Below are positions 35,201 to 38,200 of a stretch of 64,000 nt of DNA, in pieces (the first letter of the stretch is position 1; every line of letters begins with the position of its first letter). Location of the stretch: assembly GCA_041650805.1 (NCBI GenBank), contig JBAZKM010000003.1:156439-220438 (forward strand), in the 5' to 3' direction. Source of the stretch: Candidatus Omnitrophota bacterium (GTDB lineage Bacteria > Omnitrophota > Gorgyraeia > 2-01-FULL-45-10). Under the pieces are notes generated by a model that saw only the letters and a program-made list of their open reading frames with translations, did not search any database and was not told the DNA's origin. Position numbers and translations under genes: made by a program.

Positions 35201-38200
35201 CCGGAAGCGCCGCGGAACGTGAGGTTTCACATGCTCGACTGTCGTGAGCCGGTCGCCGATAAGGCCATACCGCGCCGTGGTATACCTTATGGAGAAGGCG
35301 CTTTCGATGTCATCTCGCTTATGGAAGGGGTGTTCGATGAGGCGCATTCCTCCGACTCCGCCGAGCGTCTCCTATGGCGGGAGGCAATAAGGGTTGCCGG
35401 AAAGGACGGTGGCATTGTAGCGTTCTTCGGATTGGCCGGGAAGAATAAGTTTGAAGAATCTCTGCCCGAAGGGGTATACGCTGAAATGAAAGATAATACA
35501 TTCTTCTCTATAGGCGGCAGGAATACGAGGTATTATTTCCCTTCATGGACCAGAGAGGATGAGCCGTCTCCGTACAGGAGAGAGAAGACCGAATTTTGTG
35601 TATGGCGATTGGCTTTAAGGCACGGTGAAGAGTTACCGGGTCACCAGGTCACAATGTCACCGGTCGCGTCAGGTCTCCAAACTGAAACGGCACCCGGTCC
35701 GTCCCAACCCGTACAGCAGGACCTGCCGTTCGAGACAGAAGGAACGCCGCCTCCCGCTTCGGATCCGTCTTCCGGCCGGAGAACGCAGGGCAATTTCGGC
35801 CCCGGCGCCATGAATGTAGACGAGCCGTTAGGCCGCACATCTCCGCTCTCCGAACACGCGCAAGAGACCCTATTTACCGCACGTCTACATTTCTCCGGGG
35901 AGGGTTTTACTGCGGAGGACCTCCTGGGCAAAGTCGCATCATCGGGCACAGGAAGGATCCTGAGCGATCTCGACGAGCTTGAACGGAACGGGTATATAGA
36001 GGCCGTCGGATCGGGCAAAACCCCCGGATTCAGATTGACTGCGGAGGCGACCTTTGCCCTGATCACGATGGAATATAATCTAAGCCCCATATATATAGGT
36101 GAATTAGGCAGGAGGGGCGTGGACCTGCCTGCGGATATCGATAATCCTGATGAGCTTGCATCGCATATTATAGAGTTCACAAAAGGCGACGCCCGTATAG
36201 ATGCGAAGACCACTCTGCATATGATACTTGATCTCACAAATCTGCTGGAATGGGAATATGTGTATTTGCAGGCGCTGGAGATGAAAAAGGCGGGCAAAAA
36301 TTGGGCATTGATAGATACGGTCGGCCTTGAGGAGGCGTTAGATAAGCTAAGGCCTCTTGTCTCGCGAAGGTTACTGGAAGTTCAGGACCTGGAGGTGGGA
36401 TGGATAGGGCACGGCCTGGAGGCCGCAAGGACCCCTCCGGAGACCGATGATTTCCAGAAGGCCGCTTCATTGGTTAACAGATATGTAACGGGCGGCCTGG
36501 CGGCCGGCGAAGAAGAGTTGAAAGAGATACACAGCGTTGTGAGCGAGCACCTGAAAGTTTTTTCTGCCGGGAGGTCCCGGAATGTGAGGAGAGGTGAATA
36601 TCGCGCTTACGAAGACGCCTACAGGGACCTTACCTATTTCCCGCTGGCCGAAAAGGTCCCGGATGCTATGGCCGCCGTCTTTCGGCTGATCAAGGTCCCG
36701 GAGTTTATGGGCCTCCATCCGGTTGAACAGGCGGCCATAACCTTTTATCTCATACATAATATACAGCCTTTCGACAACGGGAATACACGGACGGCCTCAT
36801 TATTCATGGACTGTCTCCTGATGAAGAACAATTATCCGCCGTTCGTAATAAGCGAATATAACGAAAGGCGGTTCCATGAGGTAATAAAGTTCATGAGGAG
36901 GCCGGAGCCGGAACGGTTCAATGAGGGCTCGATGACACAGAGTGAGTTTGTTAACGACCCGATGAAGTTGTTGGGATCACCGGATGCCCTGGCAAAGATA
37001 CGGAGATATGCGAGGGAGTTCACGGCGTTCCTCGCGGAAGAGACGGCCCGGGAATTAGTCCTCCAACCTCCAAGCCCTGGATCCCAGACTCAAGGGTCAC
37101 CAGGTCACCAGGTTACCAGGTCACCGGTGAGGGGGGACGAAGGACGGCTGGCGGAAGAAGCGGCGTCCGCCTCAGGAACCCCGGACCTGTCGGGCTACGA
37201 ACCTCGATGGGTCACAGGCGTGAAAGAGGTCGGATCGGACCCGGCCGGGCCTTATGAGATATTTATAGATCACGGCAGGAATTACGGGAATTACACAGAT
37301 GTAAATGAGGCCCTGTATAACGGAAAGAGGTACATGGCGAAATGGGTGTCCGGCCACGGGGAGAGAGAAGGCCTGATCGCATCCCAGGCACGGGTGTTGA
37401 ATTACCTTAAAGATGTGCTGAGCGACGCCGATCTGGCGCGCATCAGCATGCCTGAATATATTCAGCTGGAAGACGGTACCAGGATGCTCCTTTTTGAAAA
37501 GTTCACCGCGGGCTCTACGATGAACGACATCATGGAAAGCGGATTCCTGGCGCTGTCGAACAAAAGGGCGTCGCTGCTTCGCGCCGTGAGGGAGATAGCT
37601 TGCGCGGTGAAGGCATTGCACGATGTGAATGTATATCACGGGGACATAACGCTTAAGAACGTCTGGGTCTTTGAGGACGGGAGAATAAAGCTCTTTGACT
37701 TCGATTTCGCGACCATGGGCACTGCAGGATTGCGCCAGAGAGGGCTCAACCTCTGGTTCGTCTCTCCGGAACGGCTTGAACGGGCATTTGGCAAAAAAGA
37801 GGCAACCATCGATAAGAAGGCCGCGGTGACAGACGAGGTATGCAGCATAGGCGTTATTATGACCGCGGTCTTAACAGGAGAATTGTTATTCAATCATGTC
37901 GTGACCGGTGAAAAGGCCGGCAGAAAGCGGCCCATGCGGTACGATCCCCGCACCGCCCTTAATGCCGTGGGTGTGCCCGGGCGGATCGTAGAGGTAGCGG
38001 TCAGGGCGTTGGCCGATAGTAAAGACCGTTTCCAGACCGTAGATGAGCTCATCCGCGCGCTCGACGGATCAGAGACGCCTTCCGAACCGATCGGGAAGAC
38101 GTCTCCCGATGCGGGCAAAGAGACCTTCCCGAAGGATCCGGAACCCGTCTCCGGCACTCCGGAGACTGCCGCGTTAAGAGATGCTATCGAGGCAGCCATT

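Follow-up and report, generated by a model that had tools for sequence, protein, structure and literature searches.

A divergent Hanks-type protein kinase domain within a putatively exported multi-enzyme protein of 7,094 residues from Omnitrophota

Bacterial Hanks-type kinases of the PknB type (Mycobacterium tuberculosis PknB, Staphylococcus aureus Stk1/PknB and Streptococcus pneumoniae StkP) have an N-terminal cytoplasmic kinase, followed by a transmembrane (TM) helix and then by extracellular sensor domains. The secreted effector kinases, which include Yersinia YpkA/YopO, Legionella LegK1-4, Shigella OspG, NleH of enteropathogenic Escherichia coli (EPEC) and Salmonella SteC, have the eukaryote-like protein kinase (ePK) fold, target the proteins of another cell, and often combine degenerate motifs with constitutive activity. 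MARTX toxins join several unrelated enzymatic effector domains in a single very large polypeptide, which is exported and divided at defined sites. Here we analyzed a kinase domain encoded in 64,000 nucleotides (nt) of contig JBAZKM010000003.1 from an uncultured Candidatus Omnitrophota bacterium (assembly GCA_041650805.1); this whole stretch is referred to below as the window. In contrast to the PknB-type kinases, the domain is an internal bead of a giant open reading frame (ORF), lying 2,680 residues into a protein that begins with a predicted signal peptide.

Very long proteins have been described from the same phylum. They carry a signal peptide as well as TM helices, and they include a 'multi-enzyme' class with methyltransferase, GNAT, HD, HATPase_c and radical SAM domains (10.64898/2026.06.07.730766). 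The function and the membrane side of the cofactor-dependent modules in these proteins are an explicit open question both in that preprint and in West-Roberts et al. 2023 (10.1101/2023.11.21.568195), and Ser/Thr protein kinase (PF00069) and Fic modules are absent from both texts. Our literature search found no paper tying Omnitrophota or Velamenicoccus to Hanks-type kinases or protein kinases, nor one that matched the sample accessions. The protein studied here resembles its relatives in the phylum in that many unrelated enzyme families of Pfam tile one polypeptide (GNAT, methyltransferase, Fic, Pkinase and HD, together with mTERF-like repeats). Its methyltransferase, GNAT, HD and radical-SAM content fits the 'Module 1/2' and 'multi-enzyme' class, and a heuristically predicted signal peptide (aa 1-34) plus a hydrophobic hairpin (aa 1591-1636) would place it in the class with signal peptide and TM helices (10.64898/2026.06.07.730766). 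At 7,094 amino acids (aa) it lies under the survey limits of 10 thousand aa (10.64898/2026.06.07.730766) and 30 thousand aa (West-Roberts et al. 2023, 10.1101/2023.11.21.568195). A kinase offers a tractable handle on the question of what such modules do and where, being small and well folded, with clear active-site residues and with minimal relatives that consist of a signal and a kinase.

The domain is a genuine Hanks-type (eukaryote-like) protein kinase. An earlier note, written from the letters of the sequence, had proposed a kinase-like domain at 37250-37990 (aa 2694-2940), and the sequence profile, the predicted fold and the conservation of the segment all support this; the interval lies within the domain and is too short at both ends, the domain covering about aa 2680-2966. 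Two of the three Pfam models named in that note recognized the segment: PF00069 (Pkinase), whose gathering score is 31.7, matched it with 53 bits (E = 4.4e-14), or with 48.1 bits when scored as part of the whole protein, and PF07714 passed its cut-off marginally. The PF00069 match is limited to profile positions 68-200, which indicates an N-lobe diverged beyond the reach of the profile. Using phmmer against the sequences of the PDB, we obtained 298 kinases at E <= 0.01 (best E 1.5e-7), with phosphorylase kinase, S. aureus Stk1/PknB, StkP and Chk1 among the top matches.

We then searched 1.84 billion representatives exhaustively with HMMER. At E <= 1e-3 there were 5,989 kinases, of which 55 reached E <= 1e-10 and 2, including the query protein itself, E <= 1e-30. 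About two dozen of the matches also cover the divergent N-lobe, and we refer to them as the clade. Its consensus reads WxxGVxxV...EPxGxxEIxFxG...YxGKxYWAK...PQAxILxYL...ILFExFPxGxTL...GVYHWDIKPxNIWIT...ILFDFDxAF...YxSxxR...DEvYSLGxTL...YxTVDEFI. Aligned with hhalign, the clade profile matched PknB with 99.4 % probability, pairing HGDITLKN with HRDVKPAN, DFD with DFG, FVSPER with YLSPEQ, TDEVCSIG with SDVYSLG, and DRFQTVDEL with NRYQTAAEM; across the N-lobe the hhalign confidence is about zero, and the pairings given there come from a greedy run and are of low confidence. Run on the segment aligned with its 24 closest relatives, AlphaFold2 produced a model with pLDDT 87.6 and pTM 0.88, compared with a pLDDT of only 34 on the single sequence. 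The model has the bilobal ePK fold, including the αF-αI (GHI) subdomain, so that the protein-kinase-like fold on which the earlier note had made its claim depend was found. Among the Foldseek matches listed for the model against the PDB there were only ePKs, BRAF/CRAF, PknB, Csk, Abl and PhK included, with 280-300 aligned columns and E-values from 2e-14 to 1e-11.

The same results bear on the type of kinase. The note had likened the catalytic loop to that of the APH/choline-kinase-like enzymes, and a small-molecule phosphotransferase of the APH, choline-kinase or Kdo-kinase type, acting on a lipid, a sugar or an antibiotic, would explain why HGDxxxxN also fits the Brenner motif of the APH and ChoK enzymes. 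This catalytic loop is shared with the APH, choline and Bud32-Rio kinases, along with weak sub-threshold profile matches; weak matches were likewise obtained to the AceK and Bud32 models and to the Kdo kinase model PF06293 (cut-off 21.3), which gave 22.6 bits with the segment taken alone and 18.6 bits within the long protein. In contrast, the APH model PF01636 gave 15 bits against a cut-off of 23.2, the C-lobe is specific to ePKs, and none of these enzymes appears among the structural matches listed. A helical C-lobe of the APH/ChoK type, lacking the APE motif and αF-αI, was not seen in the model, nor were APH or ChoK its closest structures. We therefore abandoned the APH reading and regard a small-molecule kinase as very improbable. 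Specific protein families did not capture the domain either: in NCBIfam, the equivalogs MAD6, LanL/LanKC, Bud32, KdkA and Stk1-PASTA all scored far below their cut-offs (the best, MAD6, at 58.8 bits against 460), and the PADLOC matches to PD-T4-6 and MkoA, at about 55 bits, are at the level of generic kinases. A defense-system reading based on MAD6 or PD-T4-6/MkoA was rejected, since these scores are generic and far below the cut-offs and the giant gene lies among housekeeping genes. The domain is a divergent variant that Pfam can already detect, and no new kind of enzyme. The coordinates of its parts and of the features around it are collected in Table 1.

Table 1. Features of the giant ORF and of its kinase domain, in window coordinates.
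Feature	Position (nt)	Strand	Basis
Giant ORF with the kinase module, 7,094 aa	29171-50455	+	NCBI MFA5146399.1
Predicted N-terminal Sec-type signal peptide, aa 1-34	29171-29272	+	Sequence reading and hydropathy scan
Predicted hydrophobic helical hairpin, aa 1591-1636	33941-34078	+	Kyte-Doolittle scan
GPGAMN-type linker, copy 1 of 4	35777-35850	+	Repeat family D2
Fic-fold module upstream of the kinase, aa 2447-2550	36509-36820	+	PF02661, 38.8 bits
Pro/Gly/Gln-rich linker directly upstream of the kinase (…SPGSQTQGSPGHQVTRSPV…), GHQVTxSPV type	37067-37128	+	Direct-repeat families D7/D8
Entire protein kinase domain, Hanks type (ePK), aa 2680-2966	37208-38068	+	Pfam; AlphaFold2 with clade alignment
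Variant glycine loop HGRNYGNY (G2702, G2706), GxxxG, between predicted β1 and β2	37271-37294	+	DSSP of model
β3 strand YMAKW with putative ATP-anchoring Lys2724, aa 2721-2725	37331-37345	+	Clade conservation
Middle of predicted αC helix, SQARV with Gln2739	37382-37396	+	Model
Catalytic loop HGDITLKN(VWV) with Asp2825 and Asn2830, aa 2823-2833	37637-37669 (HGDITLKN 37637-37660)	+	Clade conservation, hhalign
DFD(FA), DFG equivalent with putative metal-binding Asp2843 (FDFDFA aa 2842-2847, nt 37694-37711)	37697-37711	+	hhalign to PknB DFG
SPER, APE equivalent, aa 2865-2868	37763-37774	+	Pairs with SPEQ of PknB
αF helix motif DEVCSIG (subdomain IX D-x-W-S-x-G equivalent), aa 2888-2894	37832-37852	+	Pairs with SDVYSLG of PknB
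C-terminal helix DRFQTVDEL (subdomain XI)	38024-38050	+	Pairs with NRYQTAAEM of PknB
Linker directly downstream of the kinase (ETPSEPIGKTSPDAGKETFPKDPEPVS), PIGKxSPDAG type	38072-38151	+	Repeat family D6
HD phosphohydrolase module downstream of the kinase, aa 3081-3233	38411-38869	+	PF01966, 25.4 bits against cut-off 22
GPGAMN-type linker, copy 2: RTTPGNLGPGAMNIDEPF	39128-39201	+	Repeat family D2

The three motifs that had first drawn attention to the domain, YMAKW, HGDITLKNVWV and FDFDFA, are all present in frame 1 of the giant ORF, and two further ePK motifs that had gone unlisted, SPER and DEVCSIG, occur at the right spacing; according to PF00069, phmmer and hhalign, the agreement is far beyond chance. 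In the model, DSSP gives the order of an extra N-terminal strand (VTGVKEV), β1 (EIFID), the glycine loop, β2, β3 (KRYMAKW), αC, β4, β5, the hinge and the usual C-lobe. Residue conservation was counted in an alignment of 25 clade sequences. The residues expected of a working active site are kept there: the β3 lysine K2724 in 24 of 25, the catalytic-loop D2825 in all 25, N2830 in 24 and His2823 in 23, and D2843 of the DFG-equivalent motif in 24, the third position of that motif being D in 22. In the β3 strand A2723 is conserved in 23 of 25. The lysine of the proposed 'AxK' motif thus holds, and the motif itself strictly reads M-A-K, with the alanine at K-1 and not at K-2; the greedy alignment pairs YMAKW with VAVK (K40) of PknB at low confidence. 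The APE-equivalent motif, the αF aspartate and the subdomain XI arginine are present as well. S2865 and R2868 of SPER are found in 25 and 24 of the sequences, respectively, and SPER closes an activation segment of only 19 residues. In the αF motif, the D2888 column holds D in 17, E in 6 and H in 2 sequences, while E2889 and S2892 are kept in 23 and 20 of 25. In subdomain XI, where the clade consensus is YxTVDEFI, R2953 is present in this copy and is not conserved in the clade.

Compared with PknB-type kinases, the domain has GxxxG for GxGxxG, HGD or HWD for HRD, DFD for DFG and Gln at the presumptive αC Glu position, as well as the extra N-terminal strand (WxxGV) and the short activation segment. 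Several of these differences could indicate a pseudokinase, that is, a kinase-fold scaffold or nucleotide sensor without phosphotransfer, serving as a structural or docking bead, and they speak against the active module that we favor. The canonical glycine loop GxGxxG is absent, replaced by a GxxxG in which G2706 is conserved in 19 of 25 sequences and G2702 in 14; G2706 lies opposite the last glycine of the PknB loop in the greedy, low-confidence hhalign run. The αC glutamate has no confidently assignable counterpart. The predicted αC helix spans aa 2733-2749, and the candidates are Gln2739, whose column holds 21 Q, 3 E and 1 P, or Glu2731/2733 at the helix start, a choice for which the N-lobe hhalign is unreliable; judging from the model, Gln2739 is the best candidate for the canonical position. 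This copy is, moreover, the most deviant of the 25 at the catalytic loop, where it departs from the clade consensus at two positions (G for W and T for K): position 2824 is W in 22 of 25, giving the HWD form of the clade, with HGD occurring in this copy only, and the lysine two residues after the aspartate (D+2), present in 17 of 25, is a threonine here, with a lysine at D+4. Module decay does occur in the giant protein, as the neighboring Fic module has a degenerate active-site motif.

Against a pseudokinase stand the four residues whose loss marks most pseudokinases, namely the β3 Lys, the catalytic Asp, the Asn and the DFG Asp, which are all present and shared by 24-25 of the 25 sequences. 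Lys2724 corresponds to the β3 residue that holds the α and β phosphates of ATP, Asp2825 to the catalytic base, and Asn2830 and Asp2843 to the Mg2+ ligands. The HGD and DFD variants are found in active kinases, HGD in BUB1, Bud32 and Rio, and DFD in MNK1/2. The lost lysine at D+2 also has a counterpart: a lysine at D+4 occurs in 3 of the 7 clade members without Lys/Arg at D+2, compared with 0 of the 18 that keep one. This pairing of loss and gain looks like the relocation of a needed charge, suggesting selection for it, and is comparable to the tyrosine kinases, which have an arginine at a shifted position of the catalytic loop (HRDLAARN). Given that Lys2724, Asp2825, Asn2830 and Asp2843 vary hardly or not at all within the clade, we consider it likely that the domain is catalytically competent, and a pseudokinase unlikely. 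The active module would bind Mg-ATP and move the γ-phosphate onto Ser/Thr, possibly Tyr, hydroxyls of proteins. Both HGD and HWD are non-RD forms, and non-RD kinases usually have no need of activation-loop phosphorylation; with its short activation segment, the kinase would thus be expected to dispense with it.

Next, we asked what accompanies the kinase in the clade. The closest HMMER matches lie within proteins of 2,672-6,685 aa, and proteins longer than 2,500 aa make up 7 of 24 clade members, compared with 3 of 126 other kinase matches. Among these long proteins are P0002 (3,668 aa; two kinase copies with PALP, alpha-amylase, GNAT and HTH/sigma-70 r4 domains), P0033 (2,672 aa; two HATPase_c domains), P0009 (2,725 aa; CheR methyltransferase), P0010 (6,685 aa; methyltransferases and Metallophos) and P0042 (6,273 aa; HAD, HEAT and GDPGP1). 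Homology between the giant proteins extends to their ends. An N-terminal region (aa 11-224, 29201-29842) is common to our protein, P0042 and P0033, and a C-terminal region (aa 6894-7061, 49850-50353) to our protein, P0042 and P0010; neither region has a Pfam match. The kinase lies close upstream of the shared C-terminal region in P0010 and P0042, near the C-terminal end of the ORF in L008, and in the middle of the protein here. At the other extreme, several complete ORFs of about 355-410 aa (L009/P0048) consist of a signal and a kinase only.

Other searches reached fewer relatives. A word-index protein homology search with the kinase segment or the first 330 aa gave no match at E <= 1e-3. By a pattern-based scan of the GTDB species representatives we found no close relative, only generic kinases of 25-28 % identity in metagenome-assembled genomes of Bryobacterales, Myxococcales and Oscillospiraceae, and a metagenome scan with a tighter alignment yielded two short contigs only.

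The evidence for export comes from the N-terminus. The giant protein starts with MFITLKQSNNIARRLVSVILIASFLFTNSDLSLA followed by REIF, and the signal peptide predicted there has a positively charged n-region (K6/R13/R14), a 12-residue h-region (LVSVILIASFLF) and a c-region in which SLA is followed by RE, with an AxA (small-x-small) site. By a simple hydropathy criterion, 17 of 24 clade members have a Sec-type signal; among other kinases the figure is 6 of 126 (Fisher p = 2e-12). Here the signal peptide is followed by the motif TLSPASR at aa 43-49. A signal peptide with an LxPxS-like motif (TLSPAS in our protein; aa 1-49, 29171-29317) heads most clade members, from 355 to 6,685 aa, and may be a lineage-specific sorting signal. 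Because the Sec signal occurs here and in most clade members, including the proteins of about 360 aa that consist of signal and kinase, the kinase appears to be made for use outside the producer's cytoplasm, and the domain is most likely, as judged from sequence, an exported protein kinase module, whose target and site of action we infer. We regard the association of the clade with export signals and the linker architecture described below as the parts worth following; the identification of the fold is in itself ordinary.

Taken together, the best explanation in our view, and one that is on balance probable, is an active Hanks-type kinase module that is exported with its multi-enzyme carrier. 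The kinase is a single bead in a string of enzyme modules, 7,094 aa long in all, parted by recurring Pro/Gly/Gln-rich linkers. With less certainty, the carrier may bring it onto or into the cell of a host or prey, where it would act alongside other cofactor-dependent enzymes of the same exported protein. Action inside the cytoplasm of the other cell would be the most coherent option, because there is no ATP outside the producer and the co-resident modules need S-adenosylmethionine (SAM), acetyl-CoA and an iron-sulfur (Fe-S) cluster. Such delivery also agrees with the predatory or epibiotic way of life that has been proposed for Omnitrophota (10.1101/2023.11.21.568195, 10.64898/2026.06.07.730766). 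The secreted effector kinases could serve as a functional model for such a module, by likeness of role only. They differ from it in carrying type III/IV secretion signals and in being single-effector proteins, compared with a Sec signal, a multi-enzyme protein and the absence of a secretion system nearby in our case, and no homology to them closer than the generic kinase level was seen.

Several observations weigh against export and are better accommodated by a cytoplasmic regulatory kinase that the N-terminal hydrophobic segment or the hairpin would hold at the membrane's inner face and that would phosphorylate the cell's own proteins or neighboring modules such as Fic and HD. The radical SAM, kinase, GNAT and methyltransferase modules all need cytoplasmic cofactors (ATP, SAM, acetyl-CoA, Fe-S). 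The hairpin, which in the Kyte-Doolittle scan is the sole transmembrane-like element besides the signal peptide, has Lys/Arg-rich flanks on both sides; by the positive-inside rule, these suggest that the flanking domains are cytoplasmic, in conflict with a simple exported topology. (Two further scan segments barely exceed the threshold and lie inside folded domains, namely the αF helix of the kinase and one repeat unit.) No secretion or injection machinery adjoins the giant gene, whose neighbors are housekeeping genes, typical bacterial Hanks kinases are cytoplasmic regulators, and the export reading comes from the sequence heuristics of hydropathy and motif reading. The N-terminus, however, resembles a cleavable Sec signal in its positive n-region, 12-residue h-region and AxA site; the clade contains the minimal signal and kinase proteins together with a very strong enrichment of N-terminal signals; and a cytoplasmic reading has been tied to proteins that have no signal peptide (10.64898/2026.06.07.730766). 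We therefore give a cytoplasmic kinase some weight as a minority possibility and hold to the exported module. The hairpin could be an anchor or a membrane-insertion element.

The two outcomes differ in what they would mean. Activity combined with export would give a first sign that phosphorylation serves Omnitrophota in manipulating partner cells, and the linkers would become candidate cleavage sites that explain the use of a 7,000-residue protein. If the kinase is cytoplasmic or inactive, the result would amount to an ordinary domain annotation that the NCBI product name omits.

We also examined the modules around the kinase, using the Pfam thresholds and reporting matches at E <= 0.01. Besides the Fic and HD modules, there are a GNAT module (aa 1684-1763, 27.7 bits) and a class I methyltransferase module (aa 1961-2083, 40.4 bits), whereas dockerin, C39 or S8 peptidase and SecA domains were not found in the giant protein with Pfam. 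The core motif of the Fic module, QPFDNGNTRTAS (aa 2532-2543, 36764-36799), differs from the canonical HPFx[D/E]GNGRxxR in having Gln in place of the catalytic His and Ser in place of the last Arg. Because of these two replacements, the module is probably not an AMPylase. GNAT, methyltransferase and HD domains, for their part, very often act on small molecules. The earlier note had seen in the giant protein a full set of post-translational-modification activities, a zincin among them. The GNAT, methyltransferase, Fic and HD modules are real at the Pfam thresholds, whereas a shared purpose in protein modification remains an interpretation: it is only partly supported, since the Fic module has lost its catalytic His, the zincin is without Pfam support, and the GNAT, methyltransferase and HD domains are often small-molecule enzymes. 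The HExxH motif on which the zincin had been based, LIHEGLHL (aa 3511-3518, 39701-39724), matches no Pfam family. A CxxxCxxC motif typical of radical SAM enzymes, GCGNQCLICG, lies at aa 340-349 (30188-30217), where there is likewise no Pfam match. Further downstream, an array of repeats of about 31 residues (…GIT..AHIA.IL.SSR...EI..LV..L…) occupies about aa 3930-5215 (about 40958-44815) and is matched by the Pfam mTERF model with 53.8 bits.

Between the modules lie linkers drawn from a few recurring peptides, which are also visible as DNA repeats. The kinase is flanked by two of them: the GHQVTxSPV-type linker on its upstream side has further copies at 35628-35664 and 47428-47466, making three, and the PIGKxSPDAGxxTFPKDxExVS linker on its downstream side has a second copy at 46733-46812, with 88 % DNA identity between the two. 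The GPGAMN-type linker, R(T)TxGN[LF]GPGAMN[IV]DEP[FL], occurs four times, the copies beyond those in Table 1 being at 40706-40779 and 45056-45129. Three of the copies are perfect over 18 aa and differ from one another at 2-5 of 54 nt, all of these differences being synonymous, which hints at selection on the peptide beyond a recent duplication of the DNA. Other linkers are RPPFPGHGPGxPHIxQGPDEP, in two copies (31574-31635 and 33788-33849), and the PNxxLQA-type repeats (48016-48110 and 49763-49852). The relative P0042 has a recurring linker of its own, SGGVIGAMSER, in six copies. A 'GAM[NS]' core that this linker shares with the GPGAMN linker was set aside as too short to tell from chance.

The recurring linkers are candidate processing or docking sites. 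The GPGAMN copies at 35777 and 39128 bracket the Fic-kinase-HD block (aa ~2225-3318), and one may speculate that a Fic-kinase-HD fragment of about 1,100 aa is freed by cleavage at these conserved linkers. By analogy, the arrangement recalls MARTX, as a multi-enzyme exported polypeptide in which a hydrophobic region could serve membrane insertion. Unlike MARTX, the giant protein has no RTX repeats, cysteine protease domain or type I secretion signal, and processing at the GPGAMN linkers is here a hypothesis. A more far-reaching proposal, which we consider distinctly improbable as a whole, is that the clade represents an unrecognized group of Sec-exported Hanks-type kinases (with the motifs WxxGV, YWAK, PQA, HWDIKPxN, DFD, SxxR and DEvYSLG) that Omnitrophota, and perhaps neighboring ultra-small or epibiotic lineages, use against a host or prey. 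These kinases would be deployed either as signal and kinase proteins of about 360 aa or as polyprotein beads, with linkers (RTTPGNLGPGAMNIDEPF, in four copies, and others) as processing sites that release cassettes such as Fic-kinase-HD.

The giant ORF is no assembly oddity, as the identical 7,094-aa product is encoded on the ENA metagenome contig ERZ27247363:k141_648330 and has been deposited at NCBI. The part of the ENA contig that was compared, which comprises the last 8.9 kb of the giant gene and the downstream genes, agrees with the window at every one of 21,200 nt. The NCBI product name, on a 224-kb contig, is 'MAG: GNAT family N-acetyltransferase [Candidatus Omnitrophota bacterium]', and the neighboring LepA, NusA and IF-2 carry the same Candidatus Omnitrophota label. 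This name ignores the other domains of a protein with at least six. Proteins of this kind are easily overlooked, because the record is named after GNAT only and the word-index homology search retrieved no relative.

The giant gene lies on the chromosome between plsY and rimP-nusA-infB. Upstream are trpA, genes for M16 and M50 peptidases, rpe, a gene of the phosphoglucomutase/phosphomannomutase family, lepA, lepB, pgsA and plsY, and downstream are rimP, nusA, infB, trpS, scpA/B, pheA, aroF, tyrA and ispH. We rejected a phage or mobile element as the source of the window on account of neighbors such as trpA, rpe, lepA, lepB, pgsA, plsY, rimP, nusA, infB, trpS and scpAB. Rfam and tRNA scans of the window gave no match. 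A minus-strand ORF of 155 aa at 37172-37639, wholly within the giant ORF, was taken as a chance ORF. The GC content dips from about 0.54 to 0.47 at 44001-48000, in the last third of the giant gene. Finally, plsY and the giant gene are separated by an AT-rich gap that contains a near-consensus promoter of the sigma-70 type at 29096-29123 (TTGACA, 16 nt, TATACT, with a TG extension), which suggests that the giant gene has its own promoter.

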